Source of the DNA: a virus | Lineage: Duplodnaviria > Heunggongvirae > Uroviricota > Caudoviricetes | Virus record (IMG/VR): IMGVR_UViG_2645728010_000003 | Strand: one strand, 5' to 3' | DNA length: 22,959 nucleotides | Part shown: positions 2,621 to 20,606 of the stretch, piece by piece | How positions within the stretch are numbered: position 1 is the stretch's first letter | How the letters are laid out: the number at the start of each line of letters is the position of its first letter | Notes under the pieces: model-generated | The model's input: only the letters and a program-made list of their open reading frames with translations | Databases searched by the model: none | Told to the model about the DNA's origin: nothing | Position numbers and translations under genes: made by a program

Positions 2621-2732
2621 AACTGAAGTTGCCCTGAAAATGAAATTTTTTTGCACAACCGCAGAACTTTTCCGCAGGGCATCAGTCTTAATTAGTGCCA
2701 CTGCTTTTCTTTGATGTCCCCATTTTGTGGAG

Positions 2733-2776
2733 CCCATCAACCCCGCCATTTCGGTTCAAGGTTGATGGGTTTTTTG
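2733..2776 (+). terminator. Stem-loop plus T-run downstream of ybjL (approximate coordinates)
   Basis: cccatcaacc ... ggttgatggg inverted repeat followed by tttttt; not anchored to an ORF boundary, so +/- a few nt. Confidence 0.4.
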
Positions 2777-2855
2777 TTGCCTGAAATTTATGCTCTTTAA
2801 AATCATGATGTTAGAAGCACTGTTTTTTAACGATGGCGACAAAATGGCGGCAGCG

Positions 2856-3164: not shown

Positions 3165-3565
3165 TCATTCCATTTCGAAATCATCAATCTTCACTTCAAG
3201 CTCCAGACTGGTCGTAAAACCGTTATCCGGGCTGACAGTATGCGTCAGGGTGGTAATAGTCCATTCCGCATCATCTATCGGCTGTTTAAAGCCACTGACT
3301 TTCACTGGCATTTCCGTGTAGAGATCTGCCCGCCCTTCCGCCAGTTGTAGCGAGAATGACGCAACGCCGCGTTGCAGGCGTTCCCACTGCATTTTCGCCG
3401 CTCGTTCGGCGTTGCTCCGGTTGGCATAAGTGCGATTAAGTACCAGCACGTTTTCATCCGTACCCACCAGGTAATCGCCCTGCTTCGCTTCCGGCTCTTT
3501 CTTCTGCTTCTTAGTTCTGCGCTTACGCTTCACCGTGGTGCTTTCTTTCTTCGCAGGTTCGCGGG
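3165..3565 (-). pseudogene. D: C-terminal remnant of P2 gpD-like tail protein
   Basis: C-terminal residues (NAERAAKMQWERLQRGVASFS ... LELEVKIDDFEME) resemble the gpD C-terminus; only about 130 codons remain, with no native start. Confidence 0.7.
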
Positions 3566-3811
3566 TAACTCTTCTATCAGCGTAACAAGATGCCGCATAC
3601 TGCGCCCCAACCTGTCCAGCTTCCAGACAACCAGCGTGTCTCCTGCCGATAGTGTCCTGAGCAGTTTTTTCAGCCCCGGTCTGTCGGACTTAGTGCCGCT
3701 GATTTTATCCTCAAAAATCCGCTCACATCCCGCGCAGTTCAGCGCACTACGTTGCAAATCGGTGTTCTGGTCATTTGTTGACACGCGTACATAGCCAATA
3801 AGCATGATCAT
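3530..3811 (-). pseudogene. pin: Pin/Gin/Hin-family serine invertase, N-terminal fragment only
   Basis: MLIGYVRVSTNDQNTDLQ catalytic-Ser motif and resolvase core up to about residue 82, then unrelated residues and a stop; the C-terminal HTH domain is missing. Confidence 0.75.
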
Positions 3812-3832: not shown

Positions 3833-4375
3833 ATGATGCCAGTTAGTCGTAATCGCTGCATTTTCTTAAACGTTGGTTTGGGAGAAGACTCTGCATTACC
3901 TGTTGGGGTGCCTGTTCCGTGGCCTTCAGCCACTCCGCCTACAGGCTGGCTGAAATGCAATGGTGCAGCTTTTTCTGCTGAAGAATACCCGGAACTGGCA
4001 AAGGCTTATCCGACAAATAAATTGCCTGATTTACGTGGTGAGTTTATTCGTGGCTGGGATGATGGGCGTGGTATTGATGCTGGACGTGCCTTGCTAAGTC
4101 TTCAGAATGGAGGAGTGGAATCACACACCCACCAGGGACAGCTCTTCAGAGTCAGTGATTATCGTACAAAAGAAATACCAGCATCAGAAGTTATGGGAAG
4201 AGGATATATTGCAAGCCTGACGCCGGGTGCTGATAGCCCACTTGATTTTGATGATTATTCTGTATCCTCTAATCCAAATGGATATTTTGTCGGGAATCAG
4301 AGAACAACAGCATATGGGGTAAATGAAACCCGCCCACGGAATATTGCATTTAACTATATCGTGAGGGCTGCATAA
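3833..4375 (+). CDS. Alternative tail-fibre C-terminal cassette (Sv'-like), promoterless in the current orientation
   Basis: Tail-fibre tip-like sequence beginning at a conserved GLGE junction that matches GLGD in H; inverted relative to H. Confidence 0.6.
   Translation: MMPVSRNRCIFLNVGLGEDSALPVGVPVPWPSATPPTGWLKCNGAAFSAEEYPELAKAYPTNKLPDLRGEFIRGWDDGRGIDAGRALLSLQNGGVESHTHQGQLFRVSDYRTKEIPASEVMGRGYIASLTPGADSPLDFDDYSVSSNPNGYFVGNQRTTAYGVNETRPRNIAFNYIVRAA
3863..3886. other. hix/gix-like crossover site (TTCTTAAACGTTGGTTTGGGAGAA)
   Basis: Dyad resembling invertase crossover sites; shares a 13-bp core (TTGGTTTGGGAGA) in inverted orientation with 5950-5974 inside H. Confidence 0.45.
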
Positions 4376-4977
4376 TGGATAACGCTGTATTAAATAGCGA
4401 GCTTATTGCCACGAAGGCGGGAAATATTCCTGTCTATAACTATGATGGTGAAACACGGGAATATATTTCCACTTCAAATGAATATCTTTCCGTTGGTGTC
4501 GGCATTCCGGCATGTTCCTGTTTAGATGCCCCTGGCACACATAAGGCTGATTATGCAATCTGCCGTTCTACAGATTTTAACTCATGGGAATATGTGCCAG
4601 ATCATCGCGGTGAAATCGTCTATAACACCGAAACGGGAGATGCCAAAGAAATCACAGCTCCGGGTGATTACCCTGAAAATACAACCACTATCGCACCGTT
4701 AACGCCATACGATAAATGGGATGGTGAGAAATGGGTGACAGATACTGAGGCACAACACGGTGCCGCAGTAGAAGTGGCAGAAGCACAACGCCAGTCACTG
4801 ATTGATGCAGCAATGGCTTCCATTAGTCTGATTCAGCTGAAATTGCAGGCCGGGCGGAAGCTGATGCAGGCAGAAACCACCCGACTTAACATTGTGCTGG
4901 ATTACATTGACGCGGTGACGGCAACAGATACCAGCACCGCGCCGGATGTCATCTGGCCTGAACTGCCGGAGGCGTAG
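4375..4977 (+). CDS. Alternative tail-fibre assembly chaperone (Tfa'/U'-like)
   Basis: 200-aa ORF with Tfa-like conserved C-terminus (DYIDAV ... PDVIWPELP), translationally coupled to the Sv' cassette. Confidence 0.75.
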   Translation: MDNAVLNSELIATKAGNIPVYNYDGETREYISTSNEYLSVGVGIPACSCLDAPGTHKADYAICRSTDFNSWEYVPDHRGEIVYNTETGDAKEITAPGDYPENTTTIAPLTPYDKWDGEKWVTDTEAQHGAAVEVAEAQRQSLIDAAMASISLIQLKLQAGRKLMQAETTRLNIVLDYIDAVTATDTSTAPDVIWPELPEA

Positions 4978-5386
4978 GCCATTCAATATCTGGCACACTG
5001 GAGGTATCAACCAGCTCCAGTGCGTCCAGATAATCCAGCCACGAATTATATTGCGCCAGTTCCTCGCCTTTCAGACGACCAATAGCGGCTTTACCGGGCC
5101 ATTGTTTACTGTTCATGTATTCGTTGGCCTGATTAATTAATAGCTGTCTTTTTGACTCAGAAATTTCAATAAGTTCTTCATGCGTGGGTGAAGGAATATC
5201 TGCCCACGCAGGCATTCCGTCTGCACCTGCAATACGTCGCTTACCCTGCGGAGGTGTCGCCATAAACGACTCGGCACGTCGGGTTTCAATATCTTTTGCA
5301 TCATCAGGCCATGTGCCGGAATCGCGGTATACGGCCTCATTACCAGCCAGATAAAACGCATTTTTTTTAGCACTGTATTTGTACAT
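4949..5386 (-). CDS. G: Tail-fibre assembly chaperone (gpG/Tfa-like), expressed orientation
   Basis: 145 aa; C-terminus (LDYLDALELVDTSSVPDIEWP) parallels the Tfa' C-terminus; immediately downstream of H. Confidence 0.85.
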   Translation of the reverse strand: MYKYSAKKNAFYLAGNEAVYRDSGTWPDDAKDIETRRAESFMATPPQGKRRIAGADGMPAWADIPSPTHEELIEISESKRQLLINQANEYMNSKQWPGKAAIGRLKGEELAQYNSWLDYLDALELVDTSSVPDIEWPTPPAVQAR

Positions 5387-5387
5387 A

Positions 5388-7010
5388 TTATTTCCCTACC
5401 GCAATCCAGAAAAATGAACTCATGCTGGCTACTGGTGCTCCGCCCGCTGTTGGAATCATCAGATTTCGGACGCCGCATCCTAAATTAGTTATCGTTGGCG
5501 CTGAAATTACTGGCGACTGAACTACGTTAGGAAGCGATGCCTGCTGAGGACCAAATCCCACATACATCGGGTATGCAGAGAACGCGACAGGAAACGTAAT
5601 AAAGATCTCTCCAGTTGATGATGGATTGGCTGCCCCCCACTGAATAATCAGACCTGACGGTAATTTTTGCCAGCCAGGGCTGGTCAGGCTGGATGTGAAG
5701 TCATTCATATCCGGAATCTGATTTGCCCCTGAGCCAACATCCCTTTGAGCCGCACTTTTCAGATCAAGATAAGTTCTTAGTTCAGCCTTATCCTTACCGC
5801 TTAAATCTGTCAGTGTCTGGTCTTTTGGTTGCGCATAGTCTTTTGTTGCCAGACGAACTACTGTATTTGTTCTGGCGAATCGCATATACGGGGCATTGAC
5901 GTTACTACTGTCAAACCCTGCAATTTTACATTCATCACCAATTAATGCATCTCCCAAACCAAGGTATGCGAGAAGACCAGCTACATCCTTTCCACTCAAA
6001 TTAGTCAGCGTATTGTCCAACGGTTGTTTACCTGCCAGCGCATTAAGCATTGTCGTGGCAAAGTTCGGGTCATTCCCCAGCGCCGCAGCCAGTTCGTTCA
6101 GTGTATCCAGTGCAGCAGGTGCAGACCCCACCATTGCCGCAATTGCCGATTTCACAAAAGCCGTGGTGGCAATCTGTGTATTGTTAACCGACTGTGCGGC
6201 AGTGGGGGCTGTTGGCGTTCCGGTGAATGCCGGACTTAACAGCGGCGCTTTCAGTGCCAGCGCATTGTTAATGGTGGTACTGAATTTCGGGTCATTATTA
6301 ATGGCAGCGGCAATTTCTTTCATCGTATCCAGTGTGGCTGGCGCACCATTAATAAGGGCCATCAGTGCCGCCTGAACAAACGCGGTGGTCGCAATCTGCG
6401 TGGTGTTATTCCCCTCCGCTGGCGTTGGCGCTTTGGGTGTTCCGGTCAATGTCGGGCTTTCTTTGGGTGCATACTGTGAATGCGGGTCCGGTGCGGCAAG
6501 ATGTTTTGCCATCTTATCATCCACGAACACCTTCAGCTCCAGTACCTTGTCATCCACATACTTGCGGGTTGCCAGCACGACGGCAGGGTCGATTTTCAGG
6601 GTGATATTGTCCGTGCTGCTGGTAATCAGCACCATGCGCACGGTCTGGGTACGCCCACTGCCTTCAGCCAGTTGCGGCTTATAGCTTTCCGGGCAGTTTC
6701 CCACGGCAATCAATGCCCCGGACTCATCAAACAGGCCCACTTCACGTATCCACCAACCGCCCTCATTTTCAGGGATTACCTGTTCAGCAATAATCTGGCT
6801 ACTGTTCTGCGGGTCGATATAGAGCATATTCAGCGCAGCCCGGCGTTTCTCATTCACCAGTGCAGTCTGCTTTGCATCCGGCGTTGGCAATACTCCGCCG
6901 CCATCGCCGACCGCCATATGGGTAATTTTTAAAGGCACACCGAGCGCGGCGGCGCTGGCAAGTTTCGCCGCGCCAATATCCGTCAGCAGGGTATAAAATT
7001 TTGTGCTCAT
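5388..7010 (-). CDS. H: Tail fibre protein (gpH-like)
   Basis: 540 aa; conserved P2 H-type N-terminus, repeated NxxALxxKAPL / TGTPTAP collar motifs, variable C-terminus. Confidence 0.9.
   Translation of the reverse strand: MSTKFYTLLTDIGAAKLASAAALGVPLKITHMAVGDGGGVLPTPDAKQTALVNEKRRAALNMLYIDPQNSSQIIAEQVIPENEGGWWIREVGLFDESGALIAVGNCPESYKPQLAEGSGRTQTVRMVLITSSTDNITLKIDPAVVLATRKYVDDKVLELKVFVDDKMAKHLAAPDPHSQYAPKESPTLTGTPKAPTPAEGNNTTQIATTAFVQAALMALINGAPATLDTMKEIAAAINNDPKFSTTINNALALKAPLLSPAFTGTPTAPTAAQSVNNTQIATTAFVKSAIAAMVGSAPAALDTLNELAAALGNDPNFATTMLNALAGKQPLDNTLTNLSGKDVAGLLAYLGLGDALIGDECKIAGFDSSNVNAPYMRFARTNTVVRLATKDYAQPKDQTLTDLSGKDKAELRTYLDLKSAAQRDVGSGANQIPDMNDFTSSLTSPGWQKLPSGLIIQWGAANPSSTGEIFITFPVAFSAYPMYVGFGPQQASLPNVVQSPVISAPTITNLGCGVRNLMIPTAGGAPVASMSSFFWIAVGK
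5950..5974. other. Second crossover site, inside H at the constant/variable junction
   Basis: TCTCCCAAACCAAGGTATGCGAGAA; inverted partner of the 3863-3886 site; encodes LAYLGLGDA in H. Confidence 0.45.
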
Positions 7011-9537: not shown

Positions 9538-10344
9538 ATGAGTGTTATGAATCCAATAAGTTCTAATATATTTAATGCTGAATTTTTAAACACCCCGGCA
9601 GCGGCACTTGCCGCATGGATTTCCATTATTGGAGCTGTTATAACTTTGGTGACGATAGTTATAAGAGCACTATTCAAATATAGAAAATCTCATGATGTAA
9701 TTTTGAAAAAATCAGGAATACCTGCGTTTATATTAAATTTTTTTCTTATACGAATATCATTAAAAAGGCTGCCTACTATCACATGGGCTGAAAAATCAAT
9801 CACGGTTCTCTTTTCACTTCTTTTTTTGTGTGCAATTTATATTTTTGGTCCAGTTTTCATCCAAGCCATTAGAACCCCACCAAATAGCACATTGCTTTAT
9901 TGGATAAAGTCCGGTGAATCATTTTATATGTCAAAAAAACTGGCGACTGCAGCTACAATATTAACCACTCCTGATTGGGAAATATCAAAAGATGATTGCG
10001 AAGAGTCATCCTCTGCCAGTACAGAGAAGTACAAATCATTAACTATCGAACATAAAGAAATTCTTTGTAAACTACTAACCACTGATGAAGGGAATACTTA
10101 CATTGATGAAGAAGTCAAGAATTTCGTTAAAGACAAATTCTTTATCTATTCCTTTGCCCCAACAACCATATTTATTCTATTATGGATTTCTTTGGGTTTT
10201 ATACTGACCATTCACTATTCTAAAAAAGTTAGGAAATATATTCTGACTGAACAAAAAAATGCAATTCATTGGGCATATGGTGAATTCAAGACAGAAGGAA
10301 TCTATTCAATATATCACGAGTTAGAACGTAAGACTCACCATTAA
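9538..10344 (+). CDS. AT-rich moron: polytopic membrane protein of unknown function
   Basis: 268 aa, about 4 predicted TM helices plus a charged soluble domain; AGGTGGA Shine-Dalgarno 5 nt upstream; low GC against a GC-rich late operon; opposite strand to flanking V and S. Confidence 0.7.
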   Translation: MSVMNPISSNIFNAEFLNTPAAALAAWISIIGAVITLVTIVIRALFKYRKSHDVILKKSGIPAFILNFFLIRISLKRLPTITWAEKSITVLFSLLFLCAIYIFGPVFIQAIRTPPNSTLLYWIKSGESFYMSKKLATAATILTTPDWEISKDDCEESSSASTEKYKSLTIEHKEILCKLLTTDEGNTYIDEEVKNFVKDKFFIYSFAPTTIFILLWISLGFILTIHYSKKVRKYILTEQKNAIHWAYGEFKTEGIYSIYHELERKTHH

Positions 10345-11409: not shown

Positions 11410-11680
11410 GTTTCAGTTCCTCGATCCGGTGTTGTCGTTGTCTCAGCAGTGCACTGGTCTGTTCTGCTTCGGCATAGAGCCGCGCCTGCTCCCGGTTATT
11501 GGTTTCAGTCAGAATGGACAGGCTGATAAGCTGGCTGTTTTTCTTCGTCAGTTCCTGCGCTTTACTTTTCAGCGCCGCGCGCTGCGTTTCGATGGTGTGG
11601 CTGGCGCTGTTAAGCCGCCACGACTGCCAGCCCAGCGCAACGAGTGCCAGCGCCACCACTACTGCCAGCGCACGCGTCAT
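11252..11680 (-). CDS. lysB: i-spanin (LysB/Rz-like)
   Basis: N-terminal TM helix then coiled-coil periplasmic region; 142 aa. Confidence 0.7.
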   Translation of the reverse strand: MTRALAVVVALALVALGWQSWRLNSASHTIETQRAALKSKAQELTKKNSQLISLSILTETNNREQARLYAEAEQTSALLRQRQHRIEELKRENEDLRRWADTPLPADIIRLRERPALTGGTAYRQWLSASDAVSAGSGNAAH

Positions 11681-11816
11681 AGTCCAGCTCCTTTAAGGCA
11701 CCAGGCCATCTCCCGCGCACGGCGGTTATCCAGCCCCTGATTAAACACACCTTTTACATAAACCCAGCGCGGCAACTGTCGGCACGCATCTGCCCAGCGC
11801 CGCTGATTGAGCAATT

Positions 11817-12569
11817 TCACCAGTGTGGAACTACAGGCATTGCCCGTTGCTGCTTCTGCAGAGCAGACTCCAGTTCAGACAGGCGTTCTTCCTGCTCAGA
11901 CAGAGATTTTTCGGTTCGCGCGCTCAGGTTTTGCTGCTCAGTGGCGACCAGCTCCACGGCCTTATGCACATCAGAGAACCGGGCGTCATCGGACTGCTCT
12001 TTTTTGGTGAACAGCGCCGTGACGCGGGAAAACAGGGACGGTTTGTCGTCCTGGACTTCCTCCAGTTCGATCACCGTTTCCTCTGCAGCGGTAAAGAGAT
12101 TGGCAGGATTCTGCTTGCGGTTTGCCAGCGGGTTATGGGCTGCACTGGCGCTGAATGTCAGCATTTCAGTGCCCAGACTGGCAGGGTCATCAGTGGCAGC
12201 CAGGCCGACCAGGTAGGCTTTGCCCGTATCAGCGAACTTCGGGCTGACTTCCATAGAGGTGAATAATTTCTGGCCTTTTTTCACCAGTTCCACCAGGGAC
12301 TCCGTTGGCTCAACGTCGGCATACAGCGCCATCTTGCCTGCCAGCGGACCTTCCGTGATTTCCTCAGCAAACAGCGCCGTCACCTTGCCGTAGCGGTTAA
12401 AGGTGCTGTCCGGCAGATAAGACTTGATGTGCTCAAGGTTAATCAGCGCGGTATACACCGCCGGGTTGTAGCTGGCTGCCATCTGTTCCAGCCATTCACG
12501 CTGGATTTCGCGTCCGTCGGTGGTGGCACCTTCCACCCCGATGCGAAAACGCTTTGCTTTCACTGTCAT
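11817..12569 (-). CDS. O: Capsid scaffold protein (gpO-like), C-terminally truncated
   Basis: RFRIGVEG ... INLEH ... YLVGLAATDDPASLGTE motifs of gpO; about 30 aa shorter than P2 O, and 137 bp from lysB with N, M, L, X, Y, K and lysA absent. Confidence 0.85.
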   Translation of the reverse strand: MTVKAKRFRIGVEGATTDGREIQREWLEQMAASYNPAVYTALINLEHIKSYLPDSTFNRYGKVTALFAEEITEGPLAGKMALYADVEPTESLVELVKKGQKLFTSMEVSPKFADTGKAYLVGLAATDDPASLGTEMLTFSASAAHNPLANRKQNPANLFTAAEETVIELEEVQDDKPSLFSRVTALFTKKEQSDDARFSDVHKAVELVATEQQNLSARTEKSLSEQEERLSELESALQKQQRAMPVVPHW

Positions 12570-14478: not shown

Positions 14479-15503
14479 TGGGAAAGAGTAAGAAAAACCG
14501 CGCTGCGGCGACGAACCAGATCCAGCATAAAAACCAAACTTCAGCCGAAGCATTCAGCTTCGGTGATCCCGTTCCTGTTCTGGACCGCCGCGAATTACTG
14601 GACTATGTGGAATGCGTAAAGATGGACCGCTGGTATGAGCCACCCGTAAGTTTTGACGGACTGGCGCGAACATTCCGCGCCGCCGTACACCACAGTTCAC
14701 CGATTGCAGTAAAGTGCAACATTCTGACCAGCACCTACATCCCTCACCCGCTGCTCAGCCAGCAGGCGTTTTCACGTTTTGTGCAGGACTATCTGGTTTT
14801 TGGTAACGCCTACCTGGAGAAACGCACGAACCGATTCGGTGAAGTTATCGCCCTTGAGCCTGCGCTGGCAAAATACACCCGACGCGGATTAGACCTAGAT
14901 ACCTACTGGTTTGTGCAATACGGCATGACCACGCAGCCGTATCAGTTCACGAAAGGCAGCATTTTTCATCTGATGGAACCGGACATCAACCAGGAGATCT
15001 ACGGCCTGCCCGGCTATCTTTCTGCCATCCCATCCGCCCTGCTCAACGAGTCCGCCACGCTGTTCCGCCGAAAGTATTACATTAACGGTAGTCATGCAGG
15101 CTTCATCATGTACATGACCGATGCCGCGCAGAACCAGGAAGATGTGAACAACCTCCGCAATGCGATGAAAAGTGCCAAAGGCCCTGGCAACTTCCGCAAC
15201 CTGTTTATGTACTCGCCTAATGGTAAAAAAGACGGACTTCAGATTATCCCGTTGTCAGAAGTCACAGCGAAGGATGAGTTTCTGAATATCAAGAACGTGA
15301 GCCGTGATGACATGATGGCGGCACACCGCGTGCCGCCGCAAATGATGGGAATTATGCCTAATAATGTCGGGGGGTTTGGGGATGTGGAGAAGGCTAGCAA
15401 GGTATTCGTAAGAAACGAATTGATGCCCCTGCAGAAACGATTGCAGGAACTAAATAACTGGTTGGACGAAGAAGTGCTCAATTTTTCAACCTATGAGCTT
15501 TAG
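14475..15503 (+). CDS. Q: Portal protein (gpQ-like)
   Basis: 342 aa; gpQ-like sequence; overlaps the P stop by 4 nt. Confidence 0.92.
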   Translation: MMGKSKKNRAAATNQIQHKNQTSAEAFSFGDPVPVLDRRELLDYVECVKMDRWYEPPVSFDGLARTFRAAVHHSSPIAVKCNILTSTYIPHPLLSQQAFSRFVQDYLVFGNAYLEKRTNRFGEVIALEPALAKYTRRGLDLDTYWFVQYGMTTQPYQFTKGSIFHLMEPDINQEIYGLPGYLSAIPSALLNESATLFRRKYYINGSHAGFIMYMTDAAQNQEDVNNLRNAMKSAKGPGNFRNLFMYSPNGKKDGLQIIPLSEVTAKDEFLNIKNVSRDDMMAAHRVPPQMMGIMPNNVGGFGDVEKASKVFVRNELMPLQKRLQELNNWLDEEVLNFSTYEL

Positions 15504-15511
15504 TTTTAAAA

Positions 15512-15531
15512 CGAAGACCATTAGGTCTTCG
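15512..15531. terminator. Bidirectional hairpin shared by convergent Q and retron RT
   Basis: cgaagacc-atta-ggtcttcg with T-rich flanks on both strands; the RT stop codon lies in the loop. Confidence 0.6.
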
Positions 15532-16483
15532 CTTTATTTAAAGGGTTCTTTCCATATTTTTTTTCTAATTTGCTAATATAAGTTATTAATCTCCTATGGC
15601 TTTTTGAATCCACACTTAAAATAAATGACAACCATCCCCTAACGTGTTCTATCTCAGAAGACTTACCGCAAAATATATGATGTATCTTTGCTCTAATTTC
15701 TTTATATTTTTCTCTACCTATCCCAACTTTCTCTTGTGAAATAACTAAACCTGTAACTTTCCTCTGACTACGAGGCCCACTAATACAAGTTTTTTTTGAG
15801 TTAATAACCAATCCTTCACTTGGGATTATAGAAAATAAAAAATCACGTGCTTTAACAACCTTTTTCATAGACTGTGCAGATAAGGTGAGATCATCGGCAT
15901 ATCTCGTATATATCAAGCCCCGACTACCTGCATAACCCTGAATACGATAATCAAGTTTAGAACATATTAGATTAGCTAATTTAGGTGATGATGGAGCACC
16001 TTGTGGTAGCAGATTTTTATAACAACATATTTTTGTCAAAACTGAAGATATTAGTCGATTATAACCAAGAGAATGGAACACTCCAAAAACTTTGTTAGCA
16101 GTTAAACTTGGGAAAAAATCCTCCAAATCAATATTCAGTATAAAGTTTGCCCCAATATGCGGGGTAGCATTATTCAAAATAGATTGGTGCTTTTCAAATC
16201 CAATAGAAAAAGGAGATGACGACAGTTTATCTAAAATGTTACGTAGAACCCATCCTTGTAAGGCTTTAAGTTCTCGAGAAGGTTGGTAAATGGTTCTCAT
16301 TCTCTTCTCTGGGCCTTTCTTTTCTACAGTGTAGATCCTATAGCGAAAATCAGCTGTATAGATTAACAACCGAAGTGTTTCAACAGATATGCGAGTCGCC
16401 TTAGACATGTCATGCAAATTGTTCATGACAGGTAGGCCGAGATTTCTCAATCTAAAAGTGTTCAAATATTCAGCGGATTTCAT
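15521..16483 (-). CDS. ret: Retron reverse transcriptase (Ec86/Eco1-type)
   Basis: 320 aa; RT motifs including LPQGAPSSP and YTRYADDLTLS (YADD box); directly downstream of the msr-msd locus; matches my memory of the Ec86 RT. Confidence 0.95.
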   Translation of the reverse strand: MKSAEYLNTFRLRNLGLPVMNNLHDMSKATRISVETLRLLIYTADFRYRIYTVEKKGPEKRMRTIYQPSRELKALQGWVLRNILDKLSSSPFSIGFEKHQSILNNATPHIGANFILNIDLEDFFPSLTANKVFGVFHSLGYNRLISSVLTKICCYKNLLPQGAPSSPKLANLICSKLDYRIQGYAGSRGLIYTRYADDLTLSAQSMKKVVKARDFLFSIIPSEGLVINSKKTCISGPRSQRKVTGLVISQEKVGIGREKYKEIRAKIHHIFCGKSSEIEHVRGWLSFILSVDSKSHRRLITYISKLEKKYGKNPLNKAKT

Positions 16484-16489
16484 GAAAGT

Positions 16490-16658
16490 TGCGCACCCTT
16501 ACGTCAGAAAAAACGGGTTTCCTGGTTGGCTCGGAGAGCATCAGGCGATGCTCTCCGTTCCAACAAGGAAAACAGACAGTAACTCAGATTCAATGCAGGA
16601 TGCCGAAACAACATCCAGAGGTTGACCTTAATGATAAACCTCTCGCTAAGGGTGCGCA
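16490..16658 (-). ncRNA. msr-msd: Retron msr-msd non-coding RNA (msDNA template)
   Basis: Flanked by 12-bp inverted repeats a2 (16490-16501, TGCGCACCCTTA) and a1 (16647-16658); internal perfect 10-bp hairpin at 16533-16556; minus-strand sequence matches what I recall of Ec86 msr/msd. Confidence 0.9.
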
Positions 16659-17569
16659 TACGGAATCTTATCATAGTTAAATGTTGATTTTCTACGGTTT
16701 TCAAAATTCATAATCTCAAGCCGCAATCGGTCAAGTGTCTTTCTATCAAAGACGCTCCTAACATAGCTAGCCCCCAAAGCAGTGACCTGATAACCATCAG
16801 TCATTTGAAGTATTTTTCGTTCATTTATTAGACGAGAAACAACGGATCTAACAATAATTTTAGATAAAACATCATCTTGCTTTATCGCTTTAAAAGCTAG
16901 TTCACACAGTGTGCGGTAGTTGACACTATCCAGTAAATAGATACAAGGCAATAGAAACCGCTCTGCGTATAATATATTTCCAATATCTTTTGATACTTTA
17001 TTTTCTTTCCTAACCTTCTTAATAGATGCCATTAATTTTTTATATAATCGTAATTTTCTGGCAACATCAATAGATGAATCACACATTTCTTTTAGTTCAT
17101 TTGAACTACAACGCAAAACAGATTTTGAATTAAACTTACGCAACAGGCGAACAGGACCATAGTTAATAAAGCTACGTTTTGATTTAAATTTTGCATCTTG
17201 AATGCAAATCAACTTTCTCCTTAAGTTTTCATTATTAGAGAACGCACCAAGCTCTGTGAAAGACCCCGGACTTTCAGGAAATAAAATTATTACATCGACA
17301 GCTTCAGCCAGAATATTTTCTAAACTTAAAAGGCTATGCTGCCCTTGACCAGCCAAAAGATCATCAAATAGATCTTCTGGATAAAATATATCAACATCAC
17401 TGAACTTTGCTAAAAATTGTGATAATTGATGACGCCAAGATTGATGATTAGCAACGTCACCACCACATAGAAAAATGGTTATTTTAATATTAGCTCCTCG
17501 ATAGAAGCCTTTCTTTGTGAGATGTCCTATAAGCTGTTGTTGCTGCTCATCGGTAAATTTTTTATTCAT
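16646..17569 (-). CDS. Retron effector, nucleoside 2-deoxyribosyltransferase-like N-terminal domain plus C-terminal domain
   Basis: 307 aa directly upstream of msr; Rossmann-like IFLCGG ... ILFPESPGSFTELG pattern; stop codon overlaps a1; GGGGAG RBS. Confidence 0.8.
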   Translation of the reverse strand: MNKKFTDEQQQQLIGHLTKKGFYRGANIKITIFLCGGDVANHQSWRHQLSQFLAKFSDVDIFYPEDLFDDLLAGQGQHSLLSLENILAEAVDVIILFPESPGSFTELGAFSNNENLRRKLICIQDAKFKSKRSFINYGPVRLLRKFNSKSVLRCSSNELKEMCDSSIDVARKLRLYKKLMASIKKVRKENKVSKDIGNILYAERFLLPCIYLLDSVNYRTLCELAFKAIKQDDVLSKIIVRSVVSRLINERKILQMTDGYQVTALGASYVRSVFDRKTLDRLRLEIMNFENRRKSTFNYDKIPYAHP

Positions 17570-17642
17570 AATCTCCCCGCTTTTTTTTCTACTTTATACA
17601 TCAAGTTATGAATAGATCCAATCTCCATACCACATGGCGCGC

Positions 17643-17662
17643 GCTCGTATCCCCGCCACGCC
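17643..17662 (-). other. cos-like remnant (13 of 19 nt of the remembered 186 cohesive end)
   Basis: Minus strand reads GGCGTGGCGGGGATACGAGC; the first 13 nt equal the 186 cos start as I remember it (GGCGTGGCGGGGAAAGCAT). Confidence 0.35.
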
Positions 17663-17684
17663 TGCCCGCTTTATGCAGTGGTTT

Positions 17685-17786
17685 TCATGCACATGCATAA
17701 CATGAGCAAAAGCCCGCCAGTTCTGGCGGATCTGAGCAAAGACGATCCTCAATCGATCATGCGATTTCATGCAGCATAGTCATGCA
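17685..17786. repeat. Cluster of five to six (T)CATGCA motifs
   Basis: Copies at about 17685, 17692, 17757, 17767 and 17780, plus variants; function unknown. Confidence 0.35.
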
Positions 17787-18041: not shown

Positions 18042-18377
18042 ATGAACAATATTCCCCCTATACCACAGTTAGGAATTTATGTCTCAAAAATCGATCCCAC
18101 CCTACGTATCACTGTAACCGATGTTGATATTGTTGATGGTGAGGATGATTCTCCTGATGATGAATTGTTTTATTTAGTCCACTGGATCGAGGGGGAAGAT
18201 GAAAGTGATATGACAGCAATGGGATTTGAGCTAGACCCAGTAGAGTGGCAGGCTTTCGTTGAATCTGAGCAATTAGTGTTTGAGCGTGATCCGTACATGG
18301 ATTCAATCCCCGAAAATTCAAACTTGGCAAAGATTCGGGATTTTCTCATGAAGACTAAACAGAATGATCATTCGTAA
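18042..18377 (+). CDS. Strongly acidic small protein of unknown function
   Basis: 111 aa with 26 Asp/Glu against 7 Lys/Arg; AAGGAG RBS 6 nt upstream; only + strand gene in the A-to-Q interval. Confidence 0.6.
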   Translation: MNNIPPIPQLGIYVSKIDPTLRITVTDVDIVDGEDDSPDDELFYLVHWIEGEDESDMTAMGFELDPVEWQAFVESEQLVFERDPYMDSIPENSNLAKIRDFLMKTKQNDHS

Positions 18378-19154: not shown

Positions 19155-20606
19155 TTAATACAGGTTCCGCCACTTATCATCTTCCTTCAGACGCTGGTTC
19201 CGATAGAAGATACGCAGGCCTGCTCCTGACGGAATACTGCCGCCGCGAAGGAGCAAATCGACTTCTTTCTCGCTGCCATCAAATCCCCTGGACTTCAGTT
19301 CATAGACGAGCTGCTGTCGCTGATGGTCTGTAATTCGCTGTTTGTAGTCTTTACGCCGTTTCGGTTTCACCTGGCGTAACCTTGCAGCCAGTTCCCGGCG
19401 CTCTTTTTTGCTCATACTGTGCAGGTAATTGTGCAACTCCTTGTCATTCATACGGGTAATATCCGTTCTGGAGTCCCCATCAGCTGATTTGTCTTTCCCT
19501 TGTTGGTTCAAATTTTCAGCAAGGGGACAGTTATTGCCACGAGTCCAAGGGGCGCAAGCGCCCTGGTCGGCTGCCGCCTCCTGAACGTCAACGGCCTTAC
19601 GAACCATTTTCCACTTCACCGCATGAGTGCAGATCTTGCCCTCTGCAATGGGTGACCAGATGCCATAAATACGAATACCGTGATCGCCATATGCGGTCGG
19701 TTCTTCGTTGATTTCATAAGCAGTTCTGATGAGGTGATATTTGCGGGGAACCAGTACGCCGCCCTGCTTCATGATGTAGGTGGCAAAACAACCAGCATCA
19801 GCAGCAGCCAGGATTGCATCAAGACGCGGGTTATCCAGTACCGGCGCACCTGCTTTTTTGTCACCCTGTTGCCTTGCCGCCTGACCAGCCAGCAATCGCA
19901 GTTCACGGTAAGCCTGACGCCCCGGAATGCCAAAGAAGCGGAATTGCTGAACACGATGCAGAGACGCCCAGGCATTAACGTATTCAGCGTTATCACGCAG
20001 GGATTTACCCGTTTCCTTGCTGATCTCCCCAGCCAGACCACGCCCGTCAATGTTCTTACTGATGTATTTCGCGATATAGCTTGTTGGCGTACCTTTGCGC
20101 GGGTTTATCAGCTCAGACTTAAAGCGTGGTCCCGTGTTATTGCCCAGCTCCTCGCGGTCTTCACGGATGGCAAACTTACGCAGTAATGCAGTGATGGCGC
20201 GGCGGTCTTTTTTACGCATGAAACACATGAGATGCCAGTGCACAGTACCGTCATGATGCGGCTCAGCTACCGCACCTGCAGCAACACGCCCGATCTCTGC
20301 GGTTGCACTCATGACGTAATGTGGCAGTTTCTCTTTTGCCACCTCATTAATCGGTACGCATGGCAGGCAGTGAATCTGAGCCAGAAAACCATCTACCAGC
20401 GTTGAATCTTCAGTCAGATCGGTAAGCAGCCAGATTTCTGGTGCGGTTAATAAATGAGGTTGCGCTGGGTTCAACTTGTTCCGCAGAATCTGCACATTCA
20501 TGCCAGCACGTTCTGCCAGTTGCACCAGGTTGTGGCGCAATGCGAATGCACGACAGGCTTCATCAAAATGTGGATGTTTGGAAACTTGGTAATCAAACAT
20601 GGTCAA
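19155..20606 (-). CDS. A: Chimeric ORF: CII-like N-terminus fused to a rolling-circle initiator (gpA-like) C-terminal part; probably a deletion product
   Basis: First ~115 aa resemble phage regulatory protein CII ([18 protein letters not shown] ... [24 protein letters not shown]); the rest carries HUH-like HWH and YIAKYISK tyrosine motifs; 483 aa, well short of an intact gpA. Confidence 0.75.

Follow-up and report, generated by a model that had tools for sequence, protein, structure and literature searches.

Three co-oriented elements lie on the minus strand of the window, the 22,959-nt stretch of DNA analysed here, in the order effector, non-coding RNA (ncRNA) and reverse transcriptase (RT). 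The open reading frame list gives an effector gene of 307 amino acids at 16646–17569 and a retron RT gene of 320 amino acids at 15521–16483; between them, a retron ncRNA locus (msr-msd) extends from a1 to a2 over 169 nt (16490–16658) and was assigned from its sequence, its fold and its position between both Ec86 genes. The initial annotation had proposed a complete retron module of the Ec86/Eco1 type with these three elements, and all of them were recovered on the claimed strand and at the claimed coordinates.

The RT gene ends in a stop codon at 15521–15523, and a motif search of its product confirmed the YADD catalytic box claimed for it, at residues 195–198 (15890–15901, minus strand). Besides this box, the protein carries the retron-typical motifs NAxxH, in the form NATPH (residues 105–109), and VTG (residues 243–245). 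Its sequence is identical over 320 of 320 residues (100%) to PDB chain 7v9u_A, deposited as 'RNA-directed DNA polymerase from retron EC86'. RT_II-A is its best PADLOC model (7.1e-128), and in NCBIfam it reaches 287.6 bits with retron_St85_RT (NF038233; cut-off 235), so that the similarity to retron RTs is significant in PDB, PADLOC and NCBIfam. The only Pfam domain found in the protein is RVT_1 (2.9e-25). The classes of group II intron maturases, DRT2 and DRT3 were also considered for this RT and rejected, with scores of 46.4, 35 and 36 bits that lie below the respective cut-offs of 300, 390 and 200.

The effector consists of an N-terminal NDT-like/N-glycosidase domain and a C-terminal DNA-binding part. 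All of its 307 residues (307/307, 100%) are identical to PDB 7v9x_C and 8qbk, described as 'Retron Ec86 putative ribosyltransferase/DNA-binding protein'. Just one further variant of the effector has been deposited, 8qbl_G; it differs from that of the window solely by E106A, and the protein encoded here therefore has the wild-type catalytic glutamate E106. Both E106 and D69, reported as the active-site residues of the effector (Wang et al. 2023 preprint), are intact in the window. The best PADLOC model is NDT_II-A (2.7e-94), and the St85-family effector model of NCBIfam, STM3845_fam (NF038232), scores 176.6 bits against a cut-off of 100. Searches of the 307-aa protein matched no family in Pfam and none in PHROGs. 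Because Pfam gives the effector no family, the NDT-like label that had been put on its N-terminal domain rests on PADLOC and on the literature, both of which support it.

Landmarks of the ncRNA locus

The ncRNA locus is bounded by a perfect 12-nt inverted repeat (TGCGCACCCTTA / TAAGGGTGCGCA, at 16490–16501 and 16647–16658) that encloses exactly 169 nt, as stated in the initial annotation. The a1 arm (UGCGCACCCUUA, 16647–16658, minus strand) overlaps the end of the effector gene, namely its last four sense codons and the TA of its TAG stop codon, and the a2 arm (UAAGGGUGCGCA, 16490–16501, minus strand) ends 6 nt before the start codon of the RT. The first base after a1, inside UAGC, is the priming (branching) guanosine at 16646 (minus strand), which doubles as the final base of the effector stop codon. 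This agrees with published work, in which the priming guanosine directly follows a1 within UAGC and a UUU loop serves as the RT recognition element (PMC11754653). An msr stem-loop with a UUU loop (GGAUGUUG-UUU-CGGCAUCC; 16598–16616, minus strand) appears in both the predicted minimum free energy fold and the centroid fold, and is the RT recognition hairpin (P3).

The overlap between a1 and the effector stop could mechanically couple effector translation with ncRNA folding or priming on one transcript, an arrangement that we consider improbable. If it were true, ribosomes ending the translation of the effector would transiently unpair a1 and a2, and could in this way set the toxin:antitoxin ratio. 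Compact packing alone may account for the overlap.

The predicted structure of the 169-nt RNA pairs a1 with a2 and contains two 5' hairpins and one long 3' hairpin. Its folding energy of -80.3 kcal/mol compares with -46.0 +/- 3.8 kcal/mol for 200 dinucleotide shuffles of the same RNA (z = -9.0), none of which was as stable (0/200). The msd covers 16503–16588; here the plus strand reads as the msDNA, and the minus-strand transcript is the template. Over this interval the plus strand of the window exactly matches the presumed 86-nt msDNA sequence of Ec86, by which the msd was placed. The 169-nt locus as a whole is presumably identical to the Eco1 ncRNA. A 19-nt string of the ncRNA was not found in a full-text literature search; the probable match of ncRNA and msDNA to the published strings is supported by the identity of the locus with BL21(DE3).

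The msDNA is 85 nt long in the cryo-EM structures and 86 nt in the classical description (PMC12673091). Its hairpin (the DNA stem-loop, DSL), recognised both as an inverted repeat and in the fold, has 25-nt arms (16518–16542 and 16547–16571) that are 88% complementary and separated by a 4-nt loop. The stem includes a CCTGG Dcm motif at 16521–16525 (plus strand), which is the only CCWGG within the ncRNA locus. This motif has been reported as the trigger site of the system, and its mutation abolishes defence (Wang et al. 2023 preprint).

A covariance-model search of 16490–16658, suggested in the initial annotation as a check, matched no Rfam family. At gathering thresholds, Rfam found only RybB in the whole window and no retron ncRNA family, and a permissive search (E <= 10) of 16400–16760 returned only chance miRNA-like or leader-like matches. 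The missing match reflects the content of the library; it is no evidence against the ncRNA and has no bearing on the identity of the retron.

Identity of the locus and related retrons

Judged by its sequence, the locus is almost certainly retron Ec86 (Retron-Eco1, type II-A3), present as the native chromosomal copy of E. coli B/BL21. The type II-A3 assignment of Ec86 is summarised in PMC12673091, and the presence of a native Ec86 operon in BL21(DE3) is documented (Wang et al. 2023 preprint). The whole window corresponds to positions 872499–895457 of BL21(DE3) (NC_012971.2) at 100% identity, and is also found in other B-lineage genomes. The comparison of both proteins with those of Ec86, which the initial annotation had called for, gave full-length identity for RT and effector alike, and the a1/a2 repeat, the priming guanosine, the UUU hairpin, the msd hairpin and the CCTGG motif are all equally present here. 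No sequence difference from Ec86 was seen; only the annotated start of the RT varies between records, being placed at Met26 (295 aa) in RefSeq BL21(DE3) and giving the 320-aa form in the structures and in the record of isolate JNE082640. Since the sequences are identical, we regard the identity as beyond realistic doubt. The label of Ec86/Eco1 type was thus right in direction but too weak, as this is Ec86 itself, with both proteins 100% identical to the PDB chains.

The description of the module as a known defence system, and not a novel one, also holds: RT, effector and the BL21(DE3) region match the published Ec86 exactly. Ec86 is among the bacterial retrons that have been characterised best: it is a standard tool in genome editing, and its structure as an anti-phage system has been solved (PDB 7V9U, 7V9X, 7XJG, 8QBK–8QBM and 9JM0). 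The module being already known and structurally solved, and lying here in its type strain, no new biology follows from its presence. The useful by-products of the analysis are an exact coordinate map of its landmarks, the finding that the retron lies to the portal side of cos, and an apparently complete prophage that carries the retron in a clinical isolate.

In the identical BL21 region, RefSeq labels the two genes as retron St85 family RT and retron St85 family effector. Both proteins indeed exceed the NCBIfam cut-offs (NF038233 and NF038232) for Retron St85/Retron-Sen2 of Salmonella, a kinship that holds at family level only and does not amount to identity. The msDNA of St85 is not the one made by Ec86, and the triggers reported for St85 differ as well. 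The RT core of Retron Ec67 is also homologous to the RT found here (PDB 9i2f_C, E = 4.5e-34, residues 23–273). In Ec67, however, the RT is fused to an endonuclease domain (RT-Toprim; 596 aa in all), whereas Ec86 has a separate NDT-like effector upstream; with the NCBIfam model retron_Ec67_fus, the RT of the window scores 203 against a cut-off of 450.

Mechanism of defence and effector chemistry

The present analysis covers the identity, anatomy, context and distribution of the locus, and the steps from ncRNA folding to abortion come from published work on the identical sequence. In the resulting scheme, the minus strand would be transcribed through effector, ncRNA and RT, presumably as a single operon. 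The ncRNA would fold with a1 and a2 paired, and the RT would recognise the UUU hairpin, prime from the 2'-OH of the guanosine at 16646, right after a1, and copy the msd into a hairpin DNA of 85/86 nt that would still be joined to the msr RNA, forming the msDNA. For the identical sequence, production of the Ec86 msDNA is documented in the literature and by cryo-EM structures of RT-msDNA (PMC12673091; Wang et al. 2023 preprint).

The RT-msDNA would then assemble with the NDT-like/N-glycosidase effector into filaments that hold the effector inactive, following an antitoxin-toxin logic. On infection, a phage-encoded Dcm would methylate the CCTGG in the msDNA stem and free the activity of the effector. 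The freed effector would hydrolyse NAD(P)+ and/or deplete adenine nucleosides, leading to growth arrest and abortive infection. Filaments of Ec86, the Dcm trigger, the requirement for CCTGG and the depletion of adenine derivatives have all been reported (Wang et al. 2023 preprint), and NAD(P)+-hydrolysing filaments with possible ADP-ribosylation, together with the Dcm trigger, are summarised in PMC12673091.

The output of the effector has thus been reported in two ways, as NAD(P)+ hydrolysis/ADP-ribosylation and as depletion of adenine nucleosides, and the literature is not settled on this point. It is possible, if rather doubtful in our view, that the effector of this same retron is mainly an NDT-like consumer of nucleosides or adenine derivatives that poisons the nucleotide pool, and not an NAD(P)+ hydrolase/ADP-ribosyltransferase. 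At 15 min after Dcm induction, adenine, adenosine and deoxyadenosine had dropped and guanine derivatives had risen (Wang et al. 2023 preprint), which argues for nucleoside consumption, as does the match of the effector to the PADLOC NDT_II-A model. Later summaries, however, describe an NAD(P)+-hydrolysing filament, cite the ADP-ribose bound in 8QBM and call the detailed mechanism unclear (PMC12673091). The nucleoside and NAD(P)+ chemistries are not discriminated by the sequence of the effector.

Prophage setting, distribution and integrity of the module

The module (15521–17569) has a GC content of 0.355, whereas the terminase and portal genes on its left reach 0.548 and the A-gene remnant on its right 0.516, which bears out the earlier remark that it is more AT-rich than the phage backbone (35.5% GC versus about 52–55% in the adjacent phage genes). 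A defective P2/Fels-2-like prophage carries the retron as AT-rich cargo, with the portal gene on one side and the cos site on the other. Pfam and the annotation available for the identical region of BL21 place this prophage between rybB/ybjL and rcdA and show that it has undergone many deletions: a lysozyme fragment is joined to the scaffold gene (O'-K' fusion), an event in which the genes for capsid, small terminase, head completion and holin were lost; a CII'-A' fusion ORF lies at 19155–20606, with the A remnant at 19155–20270; and only fragments of D and of an invertase are kept.

On the left, the stop of the portal gene is found at 15503 and the retron begins 17 nt beyond it; an 8-bp hairpin between the convergent portal and RT genes (15512–15531), detected by pattern match, is terminator-like on the plus strand. 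On the right, the prophage has a cos-site homologue at 17633–17690, which precedes the start codon of the effector by 64 nt. A search with a 19-mer taken as P2 cos gave no match with up to 3 mismatches, and the site was then placed by alignment with the annotated cos of Escherichia phage Cartapus, to which it is identical at 57 of 59 positions, with one mismatch and one gap. The reference feature in Cartapus, at the end of its genome, is described as a 'putative cos site, homologous to the cos of P2 phage'.

P2-like phages have a hotspot of anti-phage cargo, with retrons among it, in the cos-proximal gpA-gpQ region (Rousset et al. 2022, PMC9122126). Both flanks of this hotspot are present in the window, with the portal gene Q on one side and cos and the replication gene A on the other. 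Since the retron is flanked by the portal stop at 15503 and by cos at 17633–17690, its place within the gpA-gpQ hotspot is to the portal side of cos. Its position 64 nt from cos, at the extreme end of the phage genome, might matter for expression after the entry of phage DNA. Across cos there is a second variable sub-slot, occupied by a 111-aa ORF here and by other genes in relatives. PADLOC identified no additional known defence protein among seven further cargo-like ORFs of the window.

The Ec86 module is present in 48 of 5,426 complete E. coli genomes, always as a single chromosomal copy and at 99.7% identity or more; 44 of these are laboratory strains of the B lineage and four are wild isolates. 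E. coli B is dcm-deficient. The reported use of Ec86 in MG1655 without toxicity (Wang et al. 2023 preprint) argues against a compatibility constraint between the retron and the host dcm gene. The human isolate JNE082640 has a retron of 99.9% identity at the corresponding slot of a prophage that appears complete, its capsid, terminase, lysis, A and CII genes all being full. The retron-bearing prophage of FDAARGOS_433 is partly damaged, and its retron shows six nucleotide differences, all of them in the two ORFs and none in the ncRNA. The deposited phage genomes that were searched yielded none with the retron, the best coverage being 37% and confined to the flanks. In Fels-2-like phage genomes these flanks are kept at 88–93% identity, and the slot is filled with Abi/AIPR, TIR, DUF4145 or other genes.

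Given the state of the host prophage, the locus could be read as a decayed, non-functional relic, silent or inactive within a heavily deleted element. We consider this very improbable. The prophage is clearly defective, as seen in its O'-K' and CII'-A' fusions and in the fragments of D and the invertase, and a promoter consensus scan of the region found 7 sites where 8.8 were expected by chance, with no convincing promoter standing out. Against decay, neither ORF is truncated and their products are identical to proteins that have been purified in active complexes with msDNA, the ncRNA is intact in its inverted repeat and fold, and the near-identical copies of wild isolates are without any change in the ncRNA. 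Moreover, msDNA in BL21 and a deletion phenotype of the native locus have already been reported in the literature: native BL21(DE3) fails to tolerate induced phage Dcm, while the Ec86 deletion strain tolerates it (Wang et al. 2023 preprint). An intact retron Ec86 within a defective prophage remains the reading that we adopt.

That the RT instead belongs to another bacterial class (group II intron maturase, DRT/UG or Abi), with the flanking inverted repeat being incidental, has a negligible likelihood, since its weak cross-matches to group_II_RT_mat, Drt2 and Drt3a in NCBIfam and to PDB group II intron RTs fall far under the curated cut-offs where these apply, its best matches are retron RTs, exact for Ec86, and the ncRNA shows every retron landmark.

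The setting of Ec86 has parallels in related elements. The old/tin exclusion genes of phage P2 and other gpA-gpQ cargo occupy the same slot as AT-rich, exchangeable genes near cos with a presumed anti-phage role, but their proteins and mechanism are unrelated to Ec86. The retrons Ec67 and Ec73 reside on P2/186-like and P4-like elements too, a 'retronphage' precedent for the arrangement seen here. Retrons have likewise been noted in the hotspots of P4 and P2 (PMC9122126).

Deletions in the early and structural regions

Taken as a whole, the prophage has been rendered defective by more than one deletion. In the early region, a minus-strand ORF of 483 amino acids (window 19155-20606) joins, in frame, the N-terminal part of a CII (CP76) regulator (aa 12-115) to a C-terminal portion of replication protein A (beginning at approximately aa 113). 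Intact relatives carry Fil, DUF5347, DUF2732, TraR and Dam, whereas the prophage in the window lacks them; the fusion arose by deletion of these early-region genes. More complete relatives encode a DNA adenine methylase adjacent to gene A (17202-18059 in L003 and the region 15350-17205 in L004, two such prophages numbered in their own coordinates), and the prophage of JNE082640, a human E. coli isolate, also has a PAPS-reductase-family protein adjoining gene A. By comparison, the E. coli B copy has lost both the methylase and the PAPS-reductase-family genes. A Dam-encoding phage with a retron that senses methylation is a pairing of possible significance.

The deletions at 11677-12569 and 3165-3805, both on the minus strand, have likewise made the prophage defective. 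At the former, a truncated scaffold gene abuts a lysozyme fragment, and the capsid, small terminase, head-completion, tail X and holin genes have therefore been lost. At the latter, a fragment of D (VgrG-like) abuts a truncated invertase, and these fragments adjoin oppositely oriented tail-fibre and assembly genes (window 3833-7010). This arrangement resembles an invertible tail-fibre segment that has become frozen.

Probable insertion at rybB

The RybB sRNA (window 2700-2778; Rfam, 105 bits) adjoins the ogr end of the prophage. A 27-nt imperfect direct repeat (23/27 matching) has one copy in this region (2700-2791), beginning with the last 14 nt of RybB, and a second beyond the window, approximately 590 nt past the integrase gene (24151-24177 of L001, the longer stretch). 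This repeat is probably the att core, which would place the probable insertion site at the 3' end of rybB.

Variable cargo

The A-Q hotspot has a second variable sub-slot on the side of cos away from the retron, filled here by a plus-strand ORF encoding an acidic protein of 111 amino acids (window 18042-18377). This ORF had no match in Pfam or PADLOC, its sole match being phrog_17127, of unknown function (2e-70). In the same sub-slot, the JNE082640 prophage instead carries a 531-nt ORF, and that of the isolate FDAARGOS_433 three hypotheticals.

A second AT-rich island (GC ~0.33), inserted with baseplate gene V on one side and tail-completion gene S on the other, encodes a DUF6216 protein of 268 amino acids (window 9538-10344, plus strand), with no match in PADLOC or PHROG. 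The gene, an uncharacterised moron, is missing from this spot in FDAARGOS_433 and found in the related prophage of JNE082640.

Start of the reverse transcriptase

The RefSeq annotation of BL21(DE3) begins the RT at Met26 (295 aa, 888 nt), omitting the N-terminal stretch at window 16409-16483 (minus strand), while the 320-aa form is used in the PDB constructs and in RefSeq's record for JNE082640. Since the N-terminal helix of Eco1 is reported to be essential to dimerisation (PMC12673091), the short 295-aa annotation is probably wrong.
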